A DNA stretch of 64,000 nt, taken from contig OZ257142.1 in assembly GCA_965279035.1 (NCBI GenBank), positions 2,624,001 to 2,688,000 on the forward strand, read 5' to 3'. The DNA comes from Bacteroidia bacterium (GTDB lineage: Bacteria; Bacteroidota; Bacteroidia; M30B66). Below the pieces are notes generated by a model, which saw nothing but the letters and a program-made list of their open reading frames with translations, had not been told where the DNA came from and did not search any database. The position numbers were made by a program, and so were the translations under genes. Shown piece by piece: positions 42,584 through 57,580 of this stretch. Every line of letters starts with the position of its first letter. Position 1 is the stretch's first letter.

Positions 42584-45500
42584 CTATTTTATCAAATTGA
42601 CCAATCCTTCGTAGCGTTGAATAAAACCACGATCATCGGTTACTTCAATCTTGTACAAATATGAACCTGGTGGGGCTGTTGTTGAAGAAGTAAAAGGTTT
42701 ACCGTCCCATCCATTTTCCATATCATAGGAAGCATATACTTGCTGTCCCCATCGATTAAATATGTATATATGAAATGCTTGCATTCCTTCACCATAAGGG
42801 CGGAAAAAATCATTCACTTCATCACCATTTGGAGTAAAACTGTTCGGAATATAAATTCTGTATCCGGTAGTAATTGTAATACTTCGTTCTAAAGAATCTA
42901 AACATCCAAACTCATTACCAACAAATTGATGAATCGAATAAATACCTGCTGTATCAGGAAATACATAATCTTGATTTAAGCCATACAGCGTATCTCCAGT
43001 TGAAATAACATACCAAACCGAATCTGCTTGCGTCGCCGTGCTGTTGAAAGAAATTTCTGGTTCAATCACTGTTGCTTCCAATTGATCTAAGCCGAAACCA
43101 GCTTTAGGAACAGGATTAATTAAAATGTATTGCTTACGATCTTTACTTGAAGAACAACCATGTGAAGTTGTTACATTTAAAGAAACGTCATATAAACCGG
43201 CTTCTTCATAATTAAAAGATGGTGTTTCAGATGCAGAAGGATTTCCTGTTCCAAAATTCCAGCTGTATATCATATTAGCTGGTCCAGTTGATAAATTGAT
43301 AAAATTCACTTTTACAGGCACACATCCAGTAATTACTTCAGCATAAAAGTCAGCTACTGGCTCAGGATAAATGATTACATCTGAAGTGTATAAATTACTG
43401 AAACAACCTGAGTCATCAATTTGAAGTGAGATAGTTTGTGATCCTGTAGTTCCGAAAGAAATATTTGAAGGATTTAAAATACTACTTGATGGGATATTAG
43501 CATTCGCACCAAAATTCCATATGAATGTAGCGGTTGGTGTAAACTCACCTTGTGCTTCAAAACTAAATGAGTTTCCATTGAGACACTGACCAGGAGGAAC
43601 TTCAAAATTCACAAATGGTGGAGCGGTTACAGAATAAAACAAGGTGTCTGTTGCATCACATTGTCCATCATTTGCCGTTAATATAAACTGATATGTTTGG
43701 GTGTTCGTGGTATTATTATACAATTGAATTGAAGCTTCCGATAATGTTGGATCTGAAATTCCAATTAAAGGTGTCCATTGATAAGTATAAGCTGGGTTTC
43801 CTGCAACACCAATCGTAGCAGTAGCTCCAGAACAAACTTCATGATCCGAACCTGCATCCACCAATGGTAATGAAAGCACTTGAATGTTTTGTGTTGAAGG
43901 CAATGATTGGCAACCTAAGGAAACTACAGATAAACCAATTGATTTACCACCTGTTGTGTTCCATTTTACAGTAATAGGACCTGGCCCAACAGTCGTATTC
44001 GCTAAACCATCACCAAAATCCCAATTATAGATTGCATTTGCTGGAGCAGATCCAGAATATTGTATAGTAGATTCTCCGTCCAAACAAACAGGTGTACTAG
44101 CTGTGAATGTTGATGAAGGTATCGGATTTACTACTACTTGAATTTGTGTAGGCAAGGACGGACAACCATTCTCTGTTACTGTTAAGTTTAGAAAATATGA
44201 ACCAGCAGTTCCCCAAGTAACATTGATTGGACCTGATGAAGTTGAAGTTAATGGTGTTGCAGTTGGGAATGACCAATTAAAAGTTGCTGTTGCCCCTGCT
44301 CCACCCGTATATGTTACGATACTTGGACTTCCTTCACATACAGGACTTAATGCTGTAAAAGAAGAAAGAGGTGTATTATATACTGTAACAGTTTGTGAAA
44401 TAGGTAATGAAGAACATCCATTTTCTGTAACAGTTAATGAAACAGTTTTTGTACCCGAAGCATTCCAATTTACATTATAAGGCCCAGAAGTTCCTCCAGT
44501 TGTTGATGCGATTCCTCCATCAAATGACCAAACATAAGTACCTGCACTTGTTCCTGTTCCGGTATAATTTGTTATTGCATTAATACCTGGACAAACGGCT
44601 GGTGTAATTGTAAATGCTGCAGTTGGAGTTGGGTAAACTGTTACCTGTTGTGTTGTTACAGTTGAAGTACATCCATTATCTGTAACAGTCAAACCAACGG
44701 CATGAGATCCAGAATTTGACCAAGAAACTTGTTGAATGCCTGAAGTTGTGCCTCCAGGCGTAATAGTCCCATTACTATATGTCCAAGCAAAAGAAGCATT
44801 AGCACTAGCGATTCCAGAATACGTTAAAGTTGATTGAATTCCAACACAAACACCTGTAGGATTAATCGTAAAAGTTGATGTTGGAATAGGATTTACAACA
44901 ACGGTATTGGTTGTTACAGTAGAAACACACCCGTTTTGAGTAACTGATAAAGTAATATTCTTAGAACCAGCAGTTGCCCAATTTACAGTATATGGCCCAG
45001 CACCAGTTCCGCTTGCAACAACACCACCATCCCAATTCCAAGTATAGGTTGCTCCCGCGGTTGCAGTTCCACTATATGTAATTGTAGCATTTTGATTTGG
45101 GCAAACAGAAGGAGTTGCCGTAAATGTTGATGTTGGAATTGGATATACTGTTACAGGAACAGTAGAAGTATTAGATACACAGCCATTATCGTTACATGAT
45201 AAAGTAATGTTCTTTGTTCCACCTGTTGGCCATGTTACACTTATTGGCCCTGAGCCAGTTGCTGGCGTTCCAGTTCCTCCATCAAAATTCCAAGTAAAAG
45301 TTGAAGTTAAAGCTGCAGTACCTGTATATGTTAATGTAGTTGAAAGTCCAGCACAAAGGGCATTGGGACTAACAGTAAATGTTGAAGTTGGAGGAGGTAG
45401 TATTGTAACTGTATGAGAAGTTACAGATGAAATACATGAGCCAACATGTACTTCTAAGTTAATAGTTTTAACTCCTGGTGTTGCCCAAGTAACTGAAAAA

Positions 45501-46942
45501 GGACCGATACCACTGGCCGGTGATGCCACGCCACCATTAAAATTCCAAACAAATGTAGCCGAAGCAGGTGCATTTCCAGTATAAGATACGGTAACCGGAG
45601 CTGCTCCACAAACTTGACTAGCAGAAGTAGTAAATGTAGATGTTGGTGATGGATATACATCAACTGTAGTAGTAAATGTATCAGCAGCACAAGCACCGCC
45701 ATTAATTCTCAAACTTACATTTTTAGTTCCTGAAGTAGCCCAGTTTACATTTTGTGGCCCCAAACCAGTGCCTGGAACTGCAGTTCCACTATCAAAATTC
45801 CATGTTGGAACGGCTGTCGCTGTTGGAGTTGGTTGCCCTATAAATGTAAAAAGAGAGGTTTCTTGACCAGCACAAATAGGGGAAGTAACAGTAAATGTTG
45901 CATCATATTTCCTAGGACGGATGATCACTGTATCTTTTACTACAACATTACCAATACAAGGAATACTGAATGTTGCTGTACAAATAACCGTTCTATTGGT
46001 TGTTGTGTTTAACATGAATGCAGTATAATTGGGATTATTTAAAGTCCCAACATTTGTCCCATTAACAGTCCACTGCAATGAAACCAAATTAGCTGTGATC
46101 CCATTTAAAGTACCTGTTGCAGGAGCATATTGAAATGCTTGATTTGACATTCCTCCAGTAACATTATTAAAACCTGTTGGAATACTACCACAGCTACACA
46201 TAGGACTAGAATTAGCCCCCATCAATCCCATAACCCAACCTGTATTCCATAGAGTAGCACAAGCTGGTTTATTAATTACATGAATTTGAATAATGTTCGT
46301 AGTTTCAAATAATTGAATTTGAAATGATGAATTCAAACCTGGGCAGTCGGTTCCAAAAAACGGTACATTATTCCAACTGATAATAAAACGACGATTTGGA
46401 GCAACACCCGTTGTTGTATAAGTCACAGAACCTCCTGTTCCTGGATTAAAATCTTGCCAACATGCCATAATAGCACTTTGAGGTGTGCCTGTATTACAAG
46501 AAGGTAAAGCTTCAGGAGTATAGTCGGTAGGAACCGGTTGAACAAAACTCACAAAACCATTGGGACTCACATACAATTGATTATAGGTGTTCCCATAAAA
46601 TTGAAAGGGGAAACCAATTGTAATGGCACCACTTGCTCCGTCATCTGCTAAAGAAATTGCTGTTCCTGTTGTTGGTCCAGCATTCAAAGGAATTGTTGAA
46701 TAATTGTATCCAACAAACATTTGAGAGCTATTTCCACTTACAGTTGTGTTAACTGTAGCATGCAAAGGAAGAGTTTGATTCGTACATAATACCGTATCGT
46801 TCGCAGGTGAGATAGAAAGTGTTTGCGAAAATAAATTACCAGTTATAATTAAGTAGCTGGCTAATACTAAGAGCCTCAGGTGGTTGGGGAGTAGAGTTTT
46901 CAATCTGTAAGCAGACTTTATCTGAATGTGCGTAGTATTCAA
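42584..46942 (-). CDS. Large adhesin-like protein: NIDO-like head, eight ~85-aa PKD-like repeats, T9SS type B (gliding-motility-associated) CTD
   Basis: IGFPFQFYGNTY..LYVSPNGFVSF head; repeats PxPTSTFT..C..WNFDGG..GP..VxW..GxK..L..NGC; IPNSFTPNGDEVND..IFNRWG..GWDG. Start codon uncertain. Confidence 0.88.
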   Translation of the reverse strand: MNTTHIQIKSAYRLKTLLPNHLRLLVLASYLIITGNLFSQTLSISPANDTVLCTNQTLPLHATVNTTVSGNSSQMFVGYNYSTIPLNAGPTTGTAISLADDGASGAITIGFPFQFYGNTYNQLYVSPNGFVSFVQPVPTDYTPEALPSCNTGTPQSAIMACWQDFNPGTGGSVTYTTTGVAPNRRFIISWNNVPFFGTDCPGLNSSFQIQLFETTNIIQIHVINKPACATLWNTGWVMGLMGANSSPMCSCGSIPTGFNNVTGGMSNQAFQYAPATGTLNGITANLVSLQWTVNGTNVGTLNNPNYTAFMLNTTTNRTVICTATFSIPCIGNVVVKDTVIIRPRKYDATFTVTSPICAGQETSLFTFIGQPTPTATAVPTWNFDSGTAVPGTGLGPQNVNWATSGTKNVSLRINGGACAADTFTTTVDVYPSPTSTFTTSASQVCGAAPVTVSYTGNAPASATFVWNFNGGVASPASGIGPFSVTWATPGVKTINLEVHVGSCISSVTSHTVTILPPPTSTFTVSPNALCAGLSTTLTYTGTAALTSTFTWNFDGGTGTPATGSGPISVTWPTGGTKNITLSCNDNGCVSNTSTVPVTVYPIPTSTFTATPSVCPNQNATITYSGTATAGATYTWNWDGGVVASGTGAGPYTVNWATAGSKNITLSVTQNGCVSTVTTNTVVVNPIPTSTFTINPTGVCVGIQSTLTYSGIASANASFAWTYSNGTITPGGTTSGIQQVSWSNSGSHAVGLTVTDNGCTSTVTTQQVTVYPTPTAAFTITPAVCPGINAITNYTGTGTSAGTYVWSFDGGIASTTGGTSGPYNVNWNASGTKTVSLTVTENGCSSLPISQTVTVYNTPLSSFTALSPVCEGSPSIVTYTGGAGATATFNWSFPTATPLTSTSSGPINVTWGTAGSYFLNLTVTENGCPSLPTQIQVVVNPIPSSTFTASTPVCLDGESTIQYSGSAPANAIYNWDFGDGLANTTVGPGPITVKWNTTGGKSIGLSVVSLGCQSLPSTQNIQVLSLPLVDAGSDHEVCSGATATIGVAGNPAYTYQWTPLIGISDPTLSEASIQLYNNTTNTQTYQFILTANDGQCDATDTLFYSVTAPPFVNFEVPPGQCLNGNSFSFEAQGEFTPTATFIWNFGANANIPSSSILNPSNISFGTTGSQTISLQIDDSGCFSNLYTSDVIIYPEPVADFYAEVITGCVPVKVNFINLSTGPANMIYSWNFGTGNPSASETPSFNYEEAGLYDVSLNVTTSHGCSSSKDRKQYILINPVPKAGFGLDQLEATVIEPEISFNSTATQADSVWYVISTGDTLYGLNQDYVFPDTAGIYSIHQFVGNEFGCLDSLERSITITTGYRIYIPNSFTPNGDEVNDFFRPYGEGMQAFHIYIFNRWGQQVYASYDMENGWDGKPFTSSTTAPPGSYLYKIEVTDDRGFIQRYEGLVNLIK

Positions 46943-47075
46943 AACAGTTTGCTAAATATACTAAAAAAATTTCGACTACATAAAATAGTTCCTTGATTAA
47001 ACAGTATATTTTATCAAATCAATAAAATATACCTGTATCCTTACTGTTATAATAGATTTTGAAGGTTATTAACAA

Positions 47076-49265
47076 CTATCGAACAAGTACAACTATTCCA
47101 GTATAAACATGTTCCGTGTTAAAGACGTCTTTAATCCAAAGTTTGTAATTATAAACACCTGTTTCTGATGGCTTTTTCCCTTCATTGGCTCTTCCATCCC
47201 ACTCTTCTGAATATGTGTTAGTCTGAAAAATTTCGACTCCCCATCGATCAAAAATAATCATGCGATAGGTTTTAAATCCTTCTCCTTTCGGGCTAAACGT
47301 TTCATTTATTCCATCACCATCGGGAGTAAATGCATTGGGTATATAACAAGTATAAATAGGATCAATACGAATTCTAATTTTTGAAGTATCATAACATCCT
47401 ACTTCATTCACTGCGATTATTTTGGCTTTATACCATCCAGTGTCAGTATAGGTGTATGTAATATTAGGATCATCTTGAATATCTCCATTTCCAGGATCTA
47501 ACCAACTTCCCGAATTCTCAGATGATAAATCAAAAAAAGTAATATTAGGTGTTAAAATACTCGCCTGGCGTGGATTTGCATCAATGCCAGCTAAAGGTCG
47601 AGGACGAATTTGAATAAATCCTGGATACGTTGTTTGAATTGTATCTGTACAACCAATAATATTTTGGACGGTTAATGATAAATCATAAATACCTGGTTCG
47701 GTATATATATGTGTTGGATTTGCTAATGTAGAAGTAGAACCATCGCCAAAATCCCAATAAAACAACGCACCGGGAGAGTAGTTTGAAAGATTTTGAAAAA
47801 CCAAGTTAGCAGGCTCACATGCATTTTGATTATTAACTGAAAAATCGACCGTTAACATTCCATAAACAGTTACTAAGACTGTATCGTGATCTTCGCAATG
47901 TGGATCGGTAATCGTTAAATAAACAGGCCAAATTCCTGGTTCAGACCAAACTACATTTTGTGGATTTTGTAAAGTAGATGTTGAAATGGATGCGGGACCT
48001 GTAAATTCCCATTGAAACGTTGCATTACTTTCGTACTGCCCAGATGCTTGAAATGAAAATGAGTTTGTTGAGATGCATTGAGGTGCTTGTTCGGGTATAA
48101 TTGCATCAATTTTTCGATAAACAGCAATATTTAAAAATGCTGTATCAGCGCAGGAATAACCTGGATTCGCAATAAGTAAAACAGTAAATTGACCTGAATC
48201 TGGATAAGAGTAAACAGGATTTGTTAATGTACTTACATCAGAAGTAATCCCAGCAACCCCAAAATCCCATAGATAATTGGCTGCATTCGTACTTTGATTT
48301 ACAAAACTAGCTTGCAAACCATTACATAAAGATGTTCCACCATTTATGTCACTTAATGGTGCTTCAAATTCTGCTAATGTAGTATTCCCACATTGAACTA
48401 CATTAAATTGAAAATCCCGTTTATTTACACTTAGCAATACACCATTACGGTATTCACTCACACACACGGCAACAACATATTGTCCAAGCTGAGTTGGATA
48501 AGCTGTTAGCATACCTGTAGCCGGATCAATACTTGCTTGTGGTGTTGAAGGCATTGGATTCGTAGCAGAATACGGACTAGAAAAACTAACAAAATTATAG
48601 GGTGGACCTGCCGGTGGAATTGGCATTGGGACATCTGGTGTAGCACCCTCAAATGGATCACAAAGAGAATACACAAGAACATCCCCATCAGGATCTGTTG
48701 CTGAATGATTAAAATTCAAATGATCATTAATACACAAAACGATAGGAGGAAAACCATTGTAACGCGGACTCGAATTACAGGATGTCCAAGCAGATTCAGG
48801 AATGTGTGCTACATATGTAGCTCCAGTATCACCCGGATTGTTAAGATTTAAAATCGATTGGTTTCTACAACAACGTTGGTAAACTAAAGTATAACCACCA
48901 GGATAAGAAGGCAATGAGACAACTTCAGAATAAATACATTCTTCAACACACACATTAGCAGCATCTTGAAAACATGGATTAATATTGATTGGAGGAATCA
49001 AATGACTCCCGGGATAAATCATTTCAACATTTCGAACAAATCCTCCATTCGAATTGTAAACTGCCACATTAGCTGGACTATCATATGGCGCTTGACCATT
49101 TAAGCAATCACGATATAATTTCAATGTGATTCGAAATTGTCCATTTCCTAGACAATCATAATATATTTCTCCTCCTATAATATGTGTAGCTTTAAGCAAA
49201 CCTGAATTAGGCAGCTGAATAAAAAAGAATAAAATAATCAGTAAAAATCTGATCATTAGTAACAA
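47076..49265 (-). CDS. PKD-domain protein with T9SS type B CTD
   Basis: ATHIIGGEIYY, RCCRN, DPDGDVLVYSLC, RDFQFNV, WDFG repeats, IPNAFTPDGDGIN..FDRWG. Confidence 0.9.
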   Translation of the reverse strand: MLLMIRFLLIILFFFIQLPNSGLLKATHIIGGEIYYDCLGNGQFRITLKLYRDCLNGQAPYDSPANVAVYNSNGGFVRNVEMIYPGSHLIPPININPCFQDAANVCVEECIYSEVVSLPSYPGGYTLVYQRCCRNQSILNLNNPGDTGATYVAHIPESAWTSCNSSPRYNGFPPIVLCINDHLNFNHSATDPDGDVLVYSLCDPFEGATPDVPMPIPPAGPPYNFVSFSSPYSATNPMPSTPQASIDPATGMLTAYPTQLGQYVVAVCVSEYRNGVLLSVNKRDFQFNVVQCGNTTLAEFEAPLSDINGGTSLCNGLQASFVNQSTNAANYLWDFGVAGITSDVSTLTNPVYSYPDSGQFTVLLIANPGYSCADTAFLNIAVYRKIDAIIPEQAPQCISTNSFSFQASGQYESNATFQWEFTGPASISTSTLQNPQNVVWSEPGIWPVYLTITDPHCEDHDTVLVTVYGMLTVDFSVNNQNACEPANLVFQNLSNYSPGALFYWDFGDGSTSTLANPTHIYTEPGIYDLSLTVQNIIGCTDTIQTTYPGFIQIRPRPLAGIDANPRQASILTPNITFFDLSSENSGSWLDPGNGDIQDDPNITYTYTDTGWYKAKIIAVNEVGCYDTSKIRIRIDPIYTCYIPNAFTPDGDGINETFSPKGEGFKTYRMIIFDRWGVEIFQTNTYSEEWDGRANEGKKPSETGVYNYKLWIKDVFNTEHVYTGIVVLVR

Positions 49266-49317
49266 AATAAATTCAAAAAAAGAAACAACTAATGTACTCT
49301 GTTTTAATAAAGAACAA

Positions 49318-51435
49318 TCATCTAATTACTGAAACTCTACCAATAAATTGTTCTTTCTCAAGTGTTGGTTTGGTAAGTATTACTTTGTATGCATATACAT
49401 CAATAGGAATTCGATCAAGCACTCCCCTTACTCCTGTACCCCATTTTTTATCATAATCATCCGTATGGAAAATTTCCTCTCCCCAACGATTGTATATATA
49501 CATTTCAAAGGAAACAAAACCTTCTCCCAATCCCGAAAAACTATCATTTAGTCCATCCCCATCTGGTGTGAATGCATTAGGAATATAAAAACTGAAAGGT
49601 GGATATGATTTTATAGGATTACTAACGGTGTCTTTACATCCATATATATTAGTAGCAATCAATTGAACATTAAATTTTCCAGTATCTGGAAACGTATACA
49701 ATGGGTTTTGATCATTCGATTCACCTATTCCATCTCCAAAATCCCAGTTCCATACATTCACTTCTGGATAGGATAAATCAGTAAATTGGATAGTAGAGTG
49801 TTCAAAGTATTGAAGAGTATATAAAGCATGTATTTCACGAACATTAACAGTCATCGATTTGGAAATTTTTATTCCACAACTATCTGTAACTGACAAATAA
49901 TAACTAGTTGATTCCATAGGCTTTACAAATCTATCTAGATTTTGCAAGCTACTATTATCCAACCAAGAATATACAAAAGGCGCTTTGCCCCCCGTTGAAT
50001 AACCAATTAAATGTGCTTCCTTCCCTTTGCAAATAGTAGTATCATTAGATAAATACAATTTCATTTTAGTATAATTCAAAATATTGGCAAGTATAGAATC
50101 ACTAGCTACTGAACCACATTGATCTGTAGCTGTTACAACATACCATGTTGAAGAATCTGGATATACTGTTATAGGATTGCCAATGGTTTGCCCAATCCAA
50201 TTTATAGAATATGGTGAAACTCCGCCAGTTACTACAGCATTTAAATTCACAGGTGTTAATGGACAAATTAATGTTACATTCTGTCCCGGATCAACATCTA
50301 AAAGTGGTGGAGGATCATATATAAAAAAATCAACTCGCTTAATTTCTATTGTTGTACAACCTGTATCTCGGTAAATGATGGAAACCGTTTCACCTCCCGA
50401 TTCTGTGATATTATCGGGTAAGGCAAAAATATTAAAATCAACCTCGCTTTGACCAGGTTGAAATGTGATTGTAGTTGGAAAGGTTGAATAGTCAGTTCCA
50501 AATTGAGCTGAACCAGCATGTTCTAAATAAATTGTTAGAGCTTCGTTTGTTGAACCAGTTCTTTTTAAAATAATCTTATTATTTCCACAGCTTTCATAAA
50601 TAACATCGGATCCATTTATATAACTCGGCTTTTGTTCAATTGTAACTTCAGGAGATGAGAAACTGGAGGATTCTAAAAAAACAGCTGAATCATAAATTCC
50701 ATCCTTTACGTCAGCAATAACTAAAGTAATGGTATATGTTTGACAGGGAATAACTGTTGCTTGAGCAATAAATGGTTTAGTAAATCCATCAAATTGAACG
50801 GTTGGCCCTCCCCCATTTATTCCATTTCCATTATCAATATAGTAGGATGCAAAACTTCCCGAATTGATGTTATTGATTGCTACAGGTAAATTTGTTCCAG
50901 GGATAAGAGCAATATTTTGAGCACCTGTAATACCGGGACCTTGGATAAAGAAAGCAAATGCATCATTAAATTCAGAACCTACAAATTCTGGATATTCTTC
51001 GGAAGCAAAAACATATTTAAATTGAACTTTATCGCTTTCACAAAAGAAATTGAATCGTAAAACAGCAGCATCTTTAGATTCTACATTCCCACCTAAGAGT
51101 TGTTCTATTTGAGCATTACCACCAACCGACAAATCTTGACCAGAACTGGGAGTGTTGTTGGGTCCTGGTGCATCTTGAATTATGCCAGTACTCATAATAA
51201 CACCTGAAGTTAAACCGATATTTGAATTTGTTCCATCAAAACGGCCCAACATAGAAGATGAGCCATTAAATGTAATATTCGAAACTGTAACACCAGAACC
51301 AACTAATACATTTTGTACTAAAGTGGAAGCATTTTGTTGGTTAACAATTAACTGGGCATTTGTAAAAGCAGGAACCAACAGCAAAATTGCTGAGATTGTT
51401 TGAAGAATTATGTTGCTTTTACCGTTTGAACCCAT
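49318..51435 (-). CDS. Choice-of-anchor L domain protein with PKD and T9SS type B CTD
   Basis: LVQNVLVGSGVTVSN, YVFASEEYPEFVGSEFNDAF, IADVKDGIYDSAVFL; IPNAFTPDGDGLND..YNRWG. Confidence 0.9.
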   Translation of the reverse strand: MGSNGKSNIILQTISAILLLVPAFTNAQLIVNQQNASTLVQNVLVGSGVTVSNITFNGSSSMLGRFDGTNSNIGLTSGVIMSTGIIQDAPGPNNTPSSGQDLSVGGNAQIEQLLGGNVESKDAAVLRFNFFCESDKVQFKYVFASEEYPEFVGSEFNDAFAFFIQGPGITGAQNIALIPGTNLPVAINNINSGSFASYYIDNGNGINGGGPTVQFDGFTKPFIAQATVIPCQTYTITLVIADVKDGIYDSAVFLESSSFSSPEVTIEQKPSYINGSDVIYESCGNNKIILKRTGSTNEALTIYLEHAGSAQFGTDYSTFPTTITFQPGQSEVDFNIFALPDNITESGGETVSIIYRDTGCTTIEIKRVDFFIYDPPPLLDVDPGQNVTLICPLTPVNLNAVVTGGVSPYSINWIGQTIGNPITVYPDSSTWYVVTATDQCGSVASDSILANILNYTKMKLYLSNDTTICKGKEAHLIGYSTGGKAPFVYSWLDNSSLQNLDRFVKPMESTSYYLSVTDSCGIKISKSMTVNVREIHALYTLQYFEHSTIQFTDLSYPEVNVWNWDFGDGIGESNDQNPLYTFPDTGKFNVQLIATNIYGCKDTVSNPIKSYPPFSFYIPNAFTPDGDGLNDSFSGLGEGFVSFEMYIYNRWGEEIFHTDDYDKKWGTGVRGVLDRIPIDVYAYKVILTKPTLEKEQFIGRVSVIR

Positions 51436-52965: not shown

Positions 52966-52998
52966 TCCAGGCAGGAAAGCACCAATTTTCTGCCTGGA
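52966..52998 (+). terminator. Hairpin between dipeptidase and cassette copy 2 (weak U-tract)
   Basis: TCCAGGCAGGAAA / TTTTCTGCCTGGA arms. Confidence 0.55.
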
Positions 52999-53012: not shown

Positions 53013-53888
53013 ATGATCAGAAAATCGATTGCTTTTATATTTTCTGGAATTCTCCTGATAAGTGCTTGTAATAAAAAGGAGGAGAAATTAATCACTGGAA
53101 ATAAACCTCCACCAGATAATACCATTCCATCAAGTTTGCAGGTTGGCTTTATTAATAAAGCATATATCAGTATTCTAGGACGTGAACCAGATACTGATGA
53201 ATTCAATTCTGCAAAGTCTATTTTAGATCAAACTCAATTTTCTGAAAATTCCCGTAAAAACGTTATTAGTCAAATACTTACTAATGATGAATTTTATGAT
53301 CGTGAATTTGAAATTTATCGGAACGACTTATTAAATAGTACCGATACGATTCAAATAACAGATATGATTAATACGTTTGAGTTTCTACTTACTAGTCCCG
53401 CTTATGAGGCTCAATGGCCATTTATTCAAATTGAACTTACTCGTTTACAAGCATTACGAGCAGTTCCAATGGGCTTGAGAAATGGAACAGTTACATTGAA
53501 AGAAATGCATAAACGCTGTGTAGATAATTACTTCTTTGATCAAATTAATATGGGATCGCTCAATTTTGTCATTGCTACTTTCCAGCATTTGCTATTAAGA
53601 AATCCAACAGAATTTGAAAAAAGTGAAGGAGTGAAAATTATTGATGGGTTTAATGGAATATTATTTCTTCAAATTGCTCAATCGAAAAATGAATATGAAA
53701 GCATTTTTTTCAATTCTGATGCATATTATGAAGGACAGATAAAATTGAGTTTTTATCGATTCTTATTGCGCTTACCTACTTCTGAAGAAACTGCTTATTA
53801 CACAAATAAGTTGAAAGCGAATTCGGATTACAAATCAATTCTGGCTGAAATTCTTAGTAGTGATGAATTTGCCGGTTTAACAAACTAA
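53013..53888 (+). CDS. Helical lipoprotein with DUF1549/DUF1553-like repeats (cassette copy 2, gene A)
   Basis: Lipobox ISAC-NKKEE; KAYISILGREPDTDE, FQHLLLRNPTEFE, FYRFLLRLPTSEE, ILSSDEF; paralogue of 3883-4812. Confidence 0.75.
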   Translation: MIRKSIAFIFSGILLISACNKKEEKLITGNKPPPDNTIPSSLQVGFINKAYISILGREPDTDEFNSAKSILDQTQFSENSRKNVISQILTNDEFYDREFEIYRNDLLNSTDTIQITDMINTFEFLLTSPAYEAQWPFIQIELTRLQALRAVPMGLRNGTVTLKEMHKRCVDNYFFDQINMGSLNFVIATFQHLLLRNPTEFEKSEGVKIIDGFNGILFLQIAQSKNEYESIFFNSDAYYEGQIKLSFYRFLLRLPTSEETAYYTNKLKANSDYKSILAEILSSDEFAGLTN

Positions 53889-53892
53889 ATCC

Positions 53893-54375
53893 ATGAAGAA
53901 GATCCTTGTTTTCTGTTTAGTTGTTCTGATATTCCAATCCTGTAAAAAAGAAACGGAGTACATCTATGAGGTTGATTCAACTCAAGTTGAGAAAGATCAA
54001 ACCAATAAAGACATTTCAAAAAGCACCATTGAGTTTTTGTCTATAGCATATTCAGACATTTTTGGTTCAACCATTACTCAAAACCAATTGAATCGTTTAT
54101 CACTGCTTTATTTAGCATTTGGAGATAAGAAACTATTAGAGGATTTACTCATCAAGAATATGATTAATCGTCCGGAATCTCAATTGCCAAGTAATGCCAC
54201 TATGCGTGCTGATGTTGCTGCCTATGTGAAAAGCACTTATATCAAACTGTTTAACCGTGAACCAAACGAATTGGAAGCTTATACTTTGAAGAAAAATATT
54301 GATGAAAATGCCGATTTGACTTCCGTTATGGTTTACTATTCCATGATGACTTCTGACGAATACCGATACTACTAA
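53893..54375 (+). CDS. Helical lipoprotein with DUF1553-like C-terminus (cassette copy 2, gene B)
   Basis: Lipobox FQSC-KKETE; TYIKLFNREPNELE...MMTSDEYRYY; paralogue of 3382-3879. Confidence 0.75.
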   Translation: MKKILVFCLVVLIFQSCKKETEYIYEVDSTQVEKDQTNKDISKSTIEFLSIAYSDIFGSTITQNQLNRLSLLYLAFGDKKLLEDLLIKNMINRPESQLPSNATMRADVAAYVKSTYIKLFNREPNELEAYTLKKNIDENADLTSVMVYYSMMTSDEYRYY

Positions 54376-54378
54376 ACT

Positions 54379-55692
54379 ATGTCGAATTACATCCCAAGAA
54401 GAAGCTTCCTGAAAAGGACCGCCCTGGCTACTGCAGCAACAATTGCTGCTCCTTACATATTACCGAGCGGGCGTTTGTTTGCATCGTCGGGAAGCCGAGT
54501 AGCAAATCATGTTGTATTTTGTTTATTTGCAGGTGGAATTAGAAACATTGAGTCTGTTGATATGCAACGTGGCAATTTAATGCCTCGCAGTTTAACAGGC
54601 GCGGGTTCAGTTGCTCCTAGTATTGCAGCTGGTGTTGATCCATTACCCAATTTCAATGGTACATCGCTTCAAGCTCAAGCAACATTATTTCGTGAATTCC
54701 GCTATGCACAAGGACCAACAGGACATTTCAACGGACATTCTACTGCACTTACCGGCAATTACACTTTACAAGATTTGAGTATAAAAGAGGCACCTAAAAT
54801 GCCTACCATTTTTGAATATTATCGTAAACACAACAGTCCATCACAAACAGCATTAAATGCTTGGTGGATTTCGAATTCACTTGGTCCCTACCCTTCATTA
54901 AATTATAGTTCCTATCCAGGATATGGAGCTCTTTACGGAGCCAATTATGTTCAACCATTAACATTGATAAGTGGTGATGGCTTAGATGCATTGTCCAATC
55001 CACAAATCTTCAGTCAAGCTGAAAAAACCAAAATAAATTCACTTCGTAATTTTTTCAATGACAGTTTTTCAAAAAGCGGTCAATATGGAAATGCAGGAGT
55101 TGACAATGGATTAATTGATAGAGATCCAGTTCAGGAATTTCTAAGACAGGAATTAATAACAGCAGGAAATGGCGGTTATACAGATCCTTGGGGAGTTGGT
55201 ACAAGTATGAATGGTGATATGTATAATGTTTATTTCACCGAACGCATTATTCAAACATTCAAGCCTGAGTTAACTGTTGTGAATATGCAAGGAGTAGATG
55301 TATGCCACTCCAATTTTACTGAATATTGTAATAATCTTCGAAAAGCCGACTATGCCGTTGGGCATTTATGGGAAACCATTCAAAACACGCCGGGGATGGC
55401 AAATGATACGATATTAATTGTTGTACCAGAACATGGACGAAATTTACAACCGAACACCTTGATAGATCAATTTGGAAATGCTGCTATAGATCATACAAGT
55501 GATGATACTTCGCGAGAGATTTTCTGTTTGGTGGTTGGTCCTCCTGGTAAAGTGGTTCAAAACCAAAATATAACACAGGTTACTGGAGAAAGCATCGATG
55601 TAGTTCCTACTATTGCTCATATTCTTGGCTTCCATGATGAAATTCCTGGAGGTTTGCTTAATGGGCGAATCTTAAATGAATCGTTTGTATGA
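54379..55692 (+). CDS. Tat-exported DUF1501-like / alkaline phosphatase superfamily protein (cassette copy 2, gene C)
   Basis: PRRSFLK Tat motif; VVFCLFAGGIR; DVCH; DTILIVVPEHGR...IDH; DVVPTIAHILG. Confidence 0.75.
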   Translation: MSNYIPRRSFLKRTALATAATIAAPYILPSGRLFASSGSRVANHVVFCLFAGGIRNIESVDMQRGNLMPRSLTGAGSVAPSIAAGVDPLPNFNGTSLQAQATLFREFRYAQGPTGHFNGHSTALTGNYTLQDLSIKEAPKMPTIFEYYRKHNSPSQTALNAWWISNSLGPYPSLNYSSYPGYGALYGANYVQPLTLISGDGLDALSNPQIFSQAEKTKINSLRNFFNDSFSKSGQYGNAGVDNGLIDRDPVQEFLRQELITAGNGGYTDPWGVGTSMNGDMYNVYFTERIIQTFKPELTVVNMQGVDVCHSNFTEYCNNLRKADYAVGHLWETIQNTPGMANDTILIVVPEHGRNLQPNTLIDQFGNAAIDHTSDDTSREIFCLVVGPPGKVVQNQNITQVTGESIDVVPTIAHILGFHDEIPGGLLNGRILNESFV

Positions 55693-56633
55693 AAAAGCAA
55701 ATTCTCGTTTTCCTTTCAATTGGTATAGCTGGAATCCTCTTGATTAATTCTTGTAAAAAAGATGAACCTGTTCCAGTAAATCCATACGATTCGATTAATT
55801 ATGGTGACGATACTCCAGAACCCGATACCGTTGACCCTGCTTCCTTAGTTGGTTTGCATCGTAATTTGTTTTTGACAAGATGTGCATTACCTGGATGTCA
55901 CGATGGTGTTTTTGAACCCGATTTCCGTACTATTCAAAGCACCTATTCAACCATGGTTTATGCGCCTGTTAAAAAGAATAATGCAGCCAATTCATTTACT
56001 TATCGTGTAGTTCCAGGTGATACTGCTATGTCGGTTTTGTATGAACGTATTACGAATTGCTGTTTTGTAAATGAAGACGATCGTATGCCTCAGGATAATA
56101 TAGGTACAGCATTGCCAGCATCCGATATTCAACATGTTGGTCAATGGATTATGAATGGAGCAAAAAACGTAGATGGAGAAGTTTCTACTCGTCCCGATTT
56201 AGAACCAGTTGTTCAATATTATTTCGCTGCAAATTCCACGTTTGATATTGAACTTTCGGCTGAAACGAATCGGTTAGACAGCTTAATCTACAATCCTTTT
56301 TACATTCCAAGTGGAACAAGTAGTTTTTATATAGCCGTTCCTGTTACTGATGATATTACACCTACAGGTGAATTATTAGTCAATAAACTTTACTTGAGTA
56401 CAAGTCAAGATAATTTTGCTGGAGCTATCATGTTAACTGCCACCTTTTTTAATATTCCTGGACAAGATCCTATTTGGCTCGTAACTGTTCCAACTTCAGG
56501 ATTAACAGCAGGTGCTCAATATTTCATGAGGTATTATGTAAATGATGGACATCATGCTCAAAACACTGAATTTCCAGAAACGACAAGTAATCCATTTTAC
56601 AAATCCTATTGGAGTTTTATTCTTCAACCTTAA
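55689..56633 (+). CDS. Cytochrome c lipoprotein, PSCyt1-like, CX4CH haem motif (cassette copy 2, gene D)
   Basis: Lipobox INSC-KKDEP; FLTRCALPGCHDG...RVVPGDTAMSVLYERI...RMP...WIMNGA; ATGA overlap with gene C. Confidence 0.75.
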   Translation: MKKQILVFLSIGIAGILLINSCKKDEPVPVNPYDSINYGDDTPEPDTVDPASLVGLHRNLFLTRCALPGCHDGVFEPDFRTIQSTYSTMVYAPVKKNNAANSFTYRVVPGDTAMSVLYERITNCCFVNEDDRMPQDNIGTALPASDIQHVGQWIMNGAKNVDGEVSTRPDLEPVVQYYFAANSTFDIELSAETNRLDSLIYNPFYIPSGTSSFYIAVPVTDDITPTGELLVNKLYLSTSQDNFAGAIMLTATFFNIPGQDPIWLVTVPTSGLTAGAQYFMRYYVNDGHHAQNTEFPETTSNPFYKSYWSFILQP

Positions 56634-56637
56634 TTGT

Positions 56638-57081
56638 ATGAAAAAGCTATTAAGCCTACTCCTACTTTCGCTTGTTTTAGTTTCGTGTAAAAAGGATGAT
56701 GAAGTTGAAATAACATCCACACCCAACATCACATTTAAAAGTATCAGTCCGGGAACCATTAAAGAATTTAAAGATTCGGTAGTTATTGGCATTGAGTATA
56801 CTGATGGAGATGGTGATTTAGGTGAAAATGGAACCGGAATTGAAAATGCCTTTGTTACTGACACTCGAACTAATCTTCTCTATACGTTTAGAATACGTCA
56901 ATTGGCTCCTGATAATGCGAATATCATAATTCGCGGTAATTTGAATATTGTAGTACCATCCATAGGATTATTAAATTCAAGTTCGACAAGTGAAAGTGCC
57001 ACATTCCAAGTTTATATTAAAGATCGGGCTGGCCATTCGAGCAATACAGTAACGACAAGCAGCGTTACAGTTGTGCCTTGA
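56638..57081 (+). CDS. Lipoprotein with DxDGD motif (cassette copy 2, gene E)
   Basis: Start reassigned to MKKLLSLLLLSLVLVSC-KKDDE at 56638; YTDGDGDLG; paralogue of 649-1095. Confidence 0.8.
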   Translation: MKKLLSLLLLSLVLVSCKKDDEVEITSTPNITFKSISPGTIKEFKDSVVIGIEYTDGDGDLGENGTGIENAFVTDTRTNLLYTFRIRQLAPDNANIIIRGNLNIVVPSIGLLNSSSTSESATFQVYIKDRAGHSSNTVTTSSVTVVP

Positions 57082-57109: not shown

Positions 57110-57580
57110 ATGAATAAACTCCTTCAGTTAATTACGTTAAGTTGCGTTTTACTCGTTTGTTCTTGTTCGAGTTATGATCAAGTAACTGCTCCAACTGTAA
57201 GTGGTATCTCGGGATTTAAGATTGGGAAGCTGTCAGAAGGAAAACTTCCTTTAAGTTTCAATACAACCTTAAAAAATCCTGACAAACTTAAGTTTCATGT
57301 GAAACGAGTAAATCTGGAATTGATATTCGCAGGTGTGCGTGTGGCTGAGTTGAAGTCGGAACGCAAAATGAAAATTCGTCGACAAATTGAACCTGAACTT
57401 CATTGGGAAGTGACTGCCGAACTAGCACCATTACTCAAAAAACCGGGTGCATTATTAGGGACGTTATTTCGTGGTAAAATTGATTTCGAAGTGAGTGGTA
57501 CCATGACCATTGGCAAATTTCTTTGGTCAAAAACAGTTCCTGTGAAATTGAAATTACCGGTGGAGATTCCTGTGTTTTGA
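57110..57580 (+). CDS. LEA_2/WHy-like lipoprotein
   Basis: Lipobox CSC; NP motif (LKNPDK) and beta-rich pattern typical of LEA type 2. Confidence 0.6.
   Translation: MNKLLQLITLSCVLLVCSCSSYDQVTAPTVSGISGFKIGKLSEGKLPLSFNTTLKNPDKLKFHVKRVNLELIFAGVRVAELKSERKMKIRRQIEPELHWEVTAELAPLLKKPGALLGTLFRGKIDFEVSGTMTIGKFLWSKTVPVKLKLPVEIPVF

Follow-up and report, generated by a model that had tools for sequence, protein, structure and literature searches.

Within a 64,000-nucleotide (nt) stretch of the genome of a Bacteroidia bacterium (contig OZ257142.1, positions 2,624,001 to 2,688,000), referred to here as the window, five plus-strand genes lie in close file near the right-hand end (Table 1). We call these genes A to E, and we describe them here as a conserved cassette for exported proteins in Bacteroidota. 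Gene A is separated from B by 4 nt, B from C by 3 nt and D from E by 4 nt, while C and D share a 4-nt ATGA overlap. The tight packing from which the original prediction set out (gaps of 3-4 nt or an ATGA overlap) is therefore borne out by the list of open reading frames (ORFs), and all of the motifs quoted in that prediction are present in the translations of A to E, among them LFAGG, DVCH and PEHGR...DH in C and CALPGCH, VVPGD, LYER, MP and WIMNGA in D.

The export signals expected of the five products are also in place. A, B, D and E each have a lipoprotein signal peptide, in which a hydrophobic stretch is followed by a lipobox Cys that is invariant in the alignments of all four families (residues in Table 1). 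C carries a twin-arginine translocation (Tat) motif, PRRSFLKR at amino acids (aa) 6-13, which was read directly from the translation and in which R7 and F10 are invariant; the Tat hidden Markov models matched it below threshold (TIGR01409, 0.023; PF10518, 0.44). An upstream extension of the E frame by 32 codons (56542-56637), into the end of D, is possible; the short form with its start at 56638 is likely the correct one because the orthologues begin at the lipoprotein signal.

Table 1. Coordinates of the cassette genes and associated features in the window
Feature	Position	Strand	Description and basis
A	53013-53888	+	ORF; lipoprotein (Cys19), 291 aa, three DUF4214-type helical units
B	53893-54375	+	ORF; lipoprotein (Cys17), 160 aa, probable DUF4214-type unit, paralogue-like partner of A
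C	54379-55692	+	ORF; Tat-signal protein, 437 aa, predicted alkaline-phosphatase-superfamily fold, DUF1501-like, presumed catalytic subunit
D	55689-56633	+	ORF; lipoprotein (Cys22), 314 aa, N-terminal PSCyt1-like cytochrome c domain and C-terminal beta-sandwich
Cytochrome-c-like domain of D, ~aa 45-165	55821-56183	+	Aligned to the PSCyt1 domain of 12 PSCyt1-PSCyt2-PSD1 proteins
CALPGCH, putative haem-attachment motif of D (C65-x4-C70-H71)	55881-55901	+	Translation
C-terminal beta-sandwich of D, aa 169-314, Ig/FN3/CBM-like	56193-56630	+	Structure search with the model
E	56638-57081	+	Internal ATG of ORF 56542-57081; lipoprotein (Cys17), 147 aa, probably a beta-sandwich
Stem-loop, 13 bp, then T-rich tail	52966-52998	+	Terminator-like; between the M20 dipeptidase stop (52958) and the A start

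Conservation of the cassette and its surroundings

A species-level genome scan with C found at least 180 stretches that encode a relative of this protein, and the locus counts reported here refer to the best 80 of these 180. All 80 loci were fetched with C alone, and all are from Bacteroidota metagenome-assembled genomes (MAGs). At E ≤ 0.001 the relatives of C numbered 1608 among 8000 scored candidates, and the named ones all come from Bacteroidia or Flavobacteriales MAGs. A tblastn comparison of the window proteins with the loci detected A in 76 of them, B in 78, C in 80, D in 75 and E in 70, and the order A-B-C-D-E on one strand was kept throughout. The complete series was colinear in 68 of the 80 loci. 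The remaining 12 end at a contig edge; in L034, which is among these, 584 nt follow C and contain no match to D. Median intergenic gaps over the loci, from A-B to D-E, are 6, 12, 6 and 1 nt. This arrangement is far beyond chance, and together with the lipoprotein and Tat signals it bears out the proposal that the five genes co-occur in a fixed order as an exported Bacteroidota cassette.

The surroundings of the cassette show no such constancy. Neither tblastn nor ORF clustering detected a constant flanking gene over the 80 loci, and the same survey found no TonB-dependent receptor or transporter gene as a constant neighbour. tblastn places an M20 dipeptidase gene upstream of the cassette in 26 of the 80 loci, and ORF clustering does so in 25; other flanking genes encode LEA_2 lipoproteins (8 loci), S46 peptidases (7), M16 peptidases (7) and CHU_C cargo proteins (6), the rest being housekeeping genes. 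Each of these neighbours (M20, S46, M16, LEA_2 and CHU_C) was considered as a possible part of the system and rejected, as the flanks differ between lineages. Because the flanks change from lineage to lineage, the unit is taken to consist of the five genes alone.

Of 301 Bacteroidota genomes sampled evenly over the phylum, 6 were matched by a profile of the C family (E ≤ 1e-20). Five of these six matches, together with a second copy in one genome that bears the standard cassette, form a divergent subfamily with 33-43% identity in C. The gene order in this subfamily is (A)-B-C-D-(E), with B, C and D in all six loci, A in four and E in five. B-C-D is thus the core of the cassette, because it is present in every divergent locus. 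Directly after E, three of the six divergent loci (L145-L147) encode a type IX-secreted CHU_C protein of 1150-1460 aa, with CHU_C, CUB and PKD domains.

Several single loci deserve mention. The genome of L027 has two cassettes, namely the standard five-gene set of that locus and a divergent B-C-D-E copy without A (L144), which stands directly behind a gyrase-B-like gene. Single in-frame stops are present in cassette genes of three MAGs (C of L021, A of L025 and A of L079) and could be assembly errors or signs of decaying copies. The family alignments were made without certain members: L027 (a duplicate of L026) and L049 (of L048) were left out of the alignments of A, C, D and E, and further omissions were L017, L036, L063 and L079 (odd lengths or a stop) and L025 (a stop) for A, L021 (a stop), L030 and L045 for C, L021 and L031 for D, and L055 and L059 (long N-terminal extensions) for E.

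At its upstream edge the cassette is bounded by a strong stem-loop that looks like a terminator (Table 1). Between the hairpin and the ATG of A there are 14 nt, with no obvious space for a promoter of the cassette; perhaps there is read-through from the M20 gene, or perhaps the hairpin has a regulatory role. A sigma-70 promoter scan, which does not model Bacteroidota promoters, gave 17 sites against 20.6 in shuffles. Downstream, 28 nt after E, gene F (57110-57580) encodes a LEA_2-domain lipoprotein of 156 aa; it accompanies the cassette in close relatives only (6 of the 80 loci by tblastn, 8 by ORF clustering) and probably stands outside the system. On the minus strand, at 42584-51435, three large consecutive genes (1452, 729 and 705 aa) point away from the side on which the M20 gene and A to E lie; the two of them that were scanned encode a CHU_C signal for type IX secretion together with PKD or Calx-beta domains.

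Fold, remote homology and conserved residues of the five proteins

The AlphaFold model of C is confident, with a predicted local distance difference test (pLDDT) score of 86.4 and a predicted template modelling (pTM) score of 0.85. Foldseek matched this model to sulfatases and to nucleotide pyrophosphatases/phosphodiesterases (NPPs) with a probability of 1.0 and returned 462 matches at E ≤ 0.001, and VIA gave Z ≥ 8 for 507 of 998 chains. The top VIA matches were PafA (Z 27.5, root-mean-square deviation [rmsd] 3.5, 303 residues aligned) and SPAP (Z 26.2), followed by a plateau of sulfatases and NPPs at Z ~24-25. The model therefore has the core alpha/beta fold of the alkaline phosphatase superfamily, and Foldseek and VIA agree in this respect with the fold that had been proposed for C.

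The C protein of the window matches Pfam Phosphodiest below threshold (1.6e-4), and among 74 relatives of C, Phosphodiest was matched by 30, DUF1501 by 15 (E<0.1, best 2.6e-4) and Sulfatase by 10. When the C family was compared with whole profiles by hhalign, DUF1501 (26 Bacteroidota rows) was matched with a probability of 94.9% (E 4.3e-8) over 366 of ~437 positions, compared with 90.6% for Sulfatase (9 rows; E 1.3e-6, 91 columns, C-terminal only) and 3.2% for Phosphodiest (7 rows; E 0.014, 79 columns), the last two serving as controls. DUF1501 is thus the best and the sole near-full-length profile match of C, and profile similarity to the Phosphodiest and Sulfatase families is local or absent. 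An exhaustive search of 1.84 billion representatives with the C profile gave 855 matches at E ≤ 0.001. When 68 full-length matches were scanned by Pfam, 26 had no family and 6 had DUF1501, two of them over the cut-off. The proteins that cover most of the C profile either have no assignment or score weakly with DUF1501, and some carry Tat signals, whereas the many Metalloenzyme, Phosphodiest and Sulfatase proteins match its C-terminal third only. Against PDB sequences the profile found nothing significant, the best match (aIF2-beta, E 0.28) being taken as chance. On these profile data, C appears to be an unnamed branch beside DUF1501 and no member of it by the Pfam rule, so that the likeness to DUF1501 put forward in the original prediction stands as a remote homology but falls below the Pfam threshold.

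C is also the best conserved member of the cassette, with a mean column identity of 64%. Its invariant residues are G52, G53, R55, H116, H120, D307, H310, E351, G353, R354, D371 and H372, and the motifs GG-x-R, GHF, D-x-x-H, PEHGR and DH are all invariant. The corresponding invariants of the DUF1501 set are G77 (of GG), H165 (of xHF), D349/H351, F393/R395 (of EFGR) and D411/H412. The two motif skeletons differ in the spacing of DxxH and in the residue that distinguishes EHGR from EFGR, and hhalign left the xHF segments unaligned. The divergent subfamily keeps GG-x-R, GHF, D-x-x-H, PE-x-GRN and DH; behind the Glu stands H, C or F, and one member has PEFGRN, as in DUF1501. If the Phosphodiest consensus T-x-P-G-H-x-S-x-x-T-G is counted back from its conserved TG, which closes the first active-site helix (helix 116-125 of the model), the Thr nucleophile would fall on H116, by motif register only, and the strand-1 Asp would by the same register fall on A51/G52. 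A separate feature of C is the segment PYILPSGRLFA(A/S)(S/T)G at aa 24-37 (54448-54489), directly behind the Tat hydrophobic region, which is nearly invariant and is modelled with a pLDDT below 50. It may be a docking segment, or it may be a sign of an uncleaved signal.

D was predicted to be a PSCyt1-type cytochrome. For comparison, 12 full PSCyt1-PSCyt2-PSD1 proteins were taken from the genes upstream of 14 canonical DUF1501 genes, and hhalign matched the D family to their N-terminal PSCyt1 domain with a probability of 97.4% (E 1.4e-11, 123 columns), the alignment having a two-residue insertion within the haem motif. C65, P68, C70, H71, M133 and P134 are invariant in 69 D sequences, and M133-P134 parallels M119-P120, which is invariant in the PSCyt proteins. 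The haem motif reads CX4CH, not CXXCH, in all 69 sequences and in the six D proteins of the divergent subfamily. The remaining sequence matches were weak, namely the dihaem cytochrome family TIGR03806 of NCBIfam (1.4e-3) and, in the PDB, FoxE and cytochrome c6 at the MP...WI..GA segment (E 0.18-1). The cytochrome assignment thus holds as a profile homology, and the expected Pfam match and the CXXCH motif are both missing.

The predicted structure of D (pLDDT 90.2) consists of a helical N-terminal domain and a C-terminal beta-sandwich. For the latter, the best match in a wide VIA search had Z 9.5 (rmsd 3.4, 105 aligned), tied with many accessory domains of glycoside hydrolases and carbohydrate-binding modules (CBMs). 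Foldseek gave generic matches only, and structure searches with the whole of D were filled by the beta-sandwich. In L148, D is 174 aa long and comprises the cytochrome domain alone, without the beta-sandwich. As weak evidence on fusions, none of 58 candidates for longer fused proteins with the cytochrome domain of D reached E ≤ 0.001. CcsA-type cytochrome c biogenesis genes are present in all five host genomes considered, and TatC in four of the five.

A is a DUF4214-type helical lipoprotein and B is probably another; the two are related to each other, and the hhalign probability between their families is 78.6%. The [FY]xxLLxRxPxxxE-like unit occurs three times in A (about aa 51-63, 190-202 and 248-259) and once in B, which has SDEYRYY at its C-terminus. 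In Pfam, the A protein of the window matches DUF4214 (PF13946) in two stretches at 4.1e-8 (33.6 bits against a cut-off of 23.2) and PBS_linker_poly at 3.8e-5, whereas PSD1 is reached at E 0.087 only (12.7 bits against a cut-off of 28.5), over the last 26 profile positions. Among 65 relatives of A, 63 match DUF4214, 27 PBS_linker_poly, 19 PSD1 (last positions, best E 4.8e-5) and one PSCyt2. The window B has no Pfam match at E ≤ 1, and 55 of its 76 relatives match DUF4214 (E<0.1, best 2.9e-6); the invariant residues of B are C17, R122, E128, E156 and Y157. The Atlas places A near DUF4214 clusters (0.97), in which 20-21% of the members bear the family, and lists a PSCyt2 cluster 30th (0.89), a lead only.

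The original prediction saw A and B as a split DUF1549/DUF1553 (PF07583/PF07587) pair. Against full PSCyt2/PSD1 proteins, hhalign gave A 5.3% and B 7.7%, the latter for the signal peptide only, and this part of the prediction is not sustained. The wider likeness to DUF1553 or DUF1800 that had been expected is confined to one unit of A: this unit resembles the end of PSD1, and the last unit of A matched a segment of DUF1800 (PF08811) with 62% probability (E 7.5e-5) over 77 columns only, while B matched DUF1800 with 0.9%, both against a set of 11 rows of which some are N-terminally cut. Judged from these alignments, the helical partners of DUF1501-type enzymes seem to have a short DUF4214-like unit in common. 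DUF1800 proteins are said to resemble the phycobilisome protein ApcE (PMC12981691), which may be in line with the phycobilisome-linker matches of A.

The YTDGDGDLG motif of E, a putative Ca-binding subunit in the original prediction, is an invariant D-x-x-G-D-x-G loop, and the invariant residues of E are C17, D56, G59, D60 and G62. No Pfam or NCBIfam family was found for E, and its 65 members gave weak Ig/C2-like Pfam matches only. In the Atlas it falls among unnamed Bacteroidota clusters, the nearest named family being DUF4625 at 0.88, a lead only. When E was compared with D by hhalign, only the lipoprotein signal was matched.

The original prediction also envisaged an envelope complex of the five proteins, which was approached by a structure prediction on three of them. 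C (24-437), B (18-160) and A (20-291) were modelled together, unpaired, with A as the scored partner. The A-C contact score had a median of 0.36 over three runs (0.36, 0.02 and 0.50), compared with 0.00 for the best of three controls, one of which had C swapped for an unrelated protein; contact agreement between the runs was at least 63% and the pLDDT of the partner at least 83. When the tool was calibrated, 116 of 157 solved complexes came up to the mark, as did 2 of 215 mismatched pairs; passing scores of 0.60 or less came from 18 of the 157 solved complexes and from both passing mismatches. The job was unlike the calibration in having three chains and custom alignments. The prediction weakly suggests that A touches C, and to that extent it speaks for a complex.

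Relation to known systems and possible function

Genes for DUF1501 proteins beside PSCyt1/PSCyt2/PSD1 genes were reported by Kamneva et al. (2012; PMC3542564), where their function is given as unknown and membrane targeting and electron transport are proposed. The same module is abundant in Verrucomicrobia of the oxic layer, again with unknown function, according to He et al. (2017; PMC5615132). Within the accessible parts of the literature on DUF1501/DUF1553, DUF4214 and DUF1800/DUF1549/PSCyt1/PSCyt2, no description of a split Bacteroidota cassette was found. Canonical modules, made up of DUF1501 (PF07394) with PSCyt1, PSCyt2 and PSD1 (PF07635, PF07583 and PF07587), are found in Planctomycetota, Verrucomicrobiota, Lentisphaerota and some Bacteroidota. 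In the cassette, as in these modules, a gene for a Tat-signal enzyme of the alkaline phosphatase fold adjoins a gene for a protein with a PSCyt1-type cytochrome c domain. Unlike the canonical module, however, the cassette has its parts as separate small lipoproteins, lacks the large PSCyt2 and PSD1 domains and has two DUF4214-type proteins in their place; it also has a CX4CH haem motif, the extra lipoprotein E and a C protein below the Pfam DUF1501 threshold. The idea of a modular version of the Planctomycetota/Verrucomicrobiota system is upheld, as a remote homology, in the case of C and D but not in that of A and B. DUF1501 was found in 63 of 151 sampled Bacteroidota genomes, with 12 full PSCyt proteins upstream of DUF1501 genes. 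Because canonical modules also occur in Bacteroidota, the cassette is best regarded as a separate lineage and not as the version of the module peculiar to this phylum.

Other known systems share single features with the cassette. Like the pairs of DUF1800 and DUF1501 genes, it joins a helical partner to a Tat-exported enzyme of the alkaline phosphatase fold, although A and B are much smaller than DUF1800 proteins, are lipid-anchored and lack the DUF1800 core motifs. The genome of L082 has, in addition to the cassette, a true DUF1800 and DUF1501 pair elsewhere, with a DUF1501 protein of 521 aa that seems to have extra length at its C-terminus. DUF4214 domains have no known function and usually occur in large secreted multi-domain proteins. 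A lies above the Pfam threshold of DUF4214, most relatives of A and B match this family, and the phycobilisome-linker family is matched by 27 of the 65 relatives of A, but the cassette has these domains as short lipoproteins tied to an enzyme operon. C, in turn, has the core fold (Z 24-27.5) and the DxxH and (D/E)HG metal-ligand motifs in common with NPPs, PafA-type phosphatases and sulfatases, but unlike these it would, by motif register, have no strand-1 Asp and a His in place of the Thr, Ser or formylglycine nucleophile.

We postulate that A to E form one operon for an envelope enzyme system, a distant and taken-apart relative of the DUF1501 and PSCyt modules, in which a metalloenzyme works with a haem lipoprotein; we regard the chances that this is so as evenly balanced. 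C would be the catalytic subunit, exported by the Tat pathway and with a site rich in His and carboxylate residues (H116, H120, D307, H310, E351, D371 and H372) in an alkaline phosphatase fold. This site would be non-canonical: where strand 1 ends, the usual Asp would be absent, and His116 would stand where NPPs have their Thr nucleophile. D, anchored by its lipid, would carry a c-type haem with CX4CH attachment and ligation by His71 and Met133, and would exchange electrons with the metal centre of C or with the substrate of C. A and B may replace the helical PSD1 or DUF1800 partner and hold or cover C, and perhaps E and the C-terminal beta-sandwich of D act as binding modules. The most likely chemistry would be the transfer or hydrolysis of phospho- or sulfo-esters, with the metal centre under redox control. 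In this scheme, conserved gene order, folds, remote homologies and invariant residues come from the analyses above, while the binding of haem, the complex, the transfer of electrons and the chemistry are inferred.

A number of observations weigh against this proposal. With regard to C, the window protein has no Pfam DUF1501 match at E ≤ 1 (gathering cut-off 27 bits), its relatives match Phosphodiest more often than DUF1501, and a true DUF1501 protein from a cassette-bearing genome showed no BLASTP similarity to it. The hhalign ranking that places DUF1501 first is not strictly fair, as the controls were shallower (7 and 9 rows against 26). The equation of H116 with the nucleophile is a manual motif register in a segment that hhalign left unaligned, and the nucleophile could instead be T114, which precedes H116 by two residues and is conserved to at least 90%. 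We know of no characterised member of the alkaline phosphatase superfamily that is a redox enzyme, the characterised members being phosphoryl or sulfuryl transferases. In the case of D, a PSCyt1 (PF07635) match at E<0.1 is absent from the window protein and from all 69 relatives, Cytochrome_CBB3 is matched by one of the 69 only (0.028), and CX4CH would be a rare attachment motif, so that the binding of haem is putative. Homology of A and B to PSCyt2/PSD1 over their whole length is ruled out by hhalign, and the complex score is weak, with one of three runs at 0.02. Finally, the lipoproteins have a K-(D/E)-rich stretch after the Cys, and surface exposure would part them from a periplasmic C.

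A simpler account would make C an ordinary phosphatase, phosphodiesterase or sulfatase-type esterase for nutrient scavenging, with A, B, D and E as accessory or substrate-binding proteins and with the cytochrome-like domain of D in a structural or sensory role that involves no electron transfer to C. This we consider on the whole unlikely, and yet a good deal of the evidence would suit it: the leading structural matches of C are phosphatases, with sulfatases and NPPs next, no Pfam family is matched by more relatives of C than Phosphodiest, and the GH...TG segment, DxxH and EHG resemble the Phosphodiest consensus. The beta-sandwiches of D and E would be of the kind seen in accessory and CBM-type domains, and the M20, S46 and M16 peptidase genes that recur in some flanks would fit a scavenging neighbourhood. 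However, by motif register C would have an invariant GG in place of the strand-1 Asp and an invariant His at the nucleophile position, and its profile match to Phosphodiest is negligible. A haem-type D with invariant Cys, His and Met residues, kept throughout both subfamilies, is also hard to explain without a redox role, and to our knowledge Tat export is unusual among simple esterases of the alkaline phosphatase fold.

The sequence behind the lipobox lends itself to another account, in which the four lipoproteins are a surface-exposed device for the capture of metal, haem or a polymer, the Cys and His residues of D bind haem or metal non-covalently, and C works separately in the periplasm. 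In Bacteroidota, Lys and acidic residues after the lipoprotein Cys can signal surface exposure, and such residues follow the Cys directly in all four proteins, with the consensus SCKKE or SCKKD; the CHU_C surface protein directly after the cassette in half of the divergent loci would also be in keeping with this account. Nevertheless, we think it quite improbable, since no TonB-dependent receptor or transporter is constant beside the cassette, D matches a cytochrome c domain that includes the axial Met-Pro, and the complex prediction, weak as it is, sets A against C. The conservation of C, the highest in the cassette, likewise fits a central role for this protein. It might also be argued that nothing but descent has kept the genes side by side and that they have no joint function, as all loci are from one phylum and shared ancestry adds to the conservation of their order. 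We see hardly any probability in this, because the order and the tight spacing are kept down to 33-43% identity in C while the flanks change completely, and because start and stop codons overlap. A redox-coupled envelope enzyme system, held together as one operon, is therefore the reading that we prefer.

Significance for the DUF1501/PSCyt family

It is tempting to speculate further that the cassette is the smallest natural redox-coupled enzyme of the alkaline phosphatase fold, in which a c-type haem attached through CX4CH sets the oxidation state of a centre containing Fe or Mn, and in which a His stands at the nucleophile position instead of Ser, Thr or formylglycine. This more specific proposal is distinctly unlikely to hold in full. 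If it were true, it would make redox-gated esterases or oxidative enzymes, a type as yet undescribed in the superfamily, of the hundreds of unexplained DUF1501/PSCyt pairs in Planctomycetes and Verrucomicrobia, and the four- or five-part cassette would be the easiest version to reconstitute.

Some Planctomycetes and Verrucomicrobia have dozens of DUF1501 and PSCyt genes in each genome, and according to two studies these genes have had no known function since they were described (PMC3542564, PMC5615132). The compact cassette would offer a simpler way into the biochemistry of this family, as it has enzyme, haem domain and helical partner on separate small proteins, with B-C-D as a minimal core. 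Among the unannotated envelope operons carried by uncultured Bacteroidota of fresh water and soil, the cassette is also one of the better conserved.

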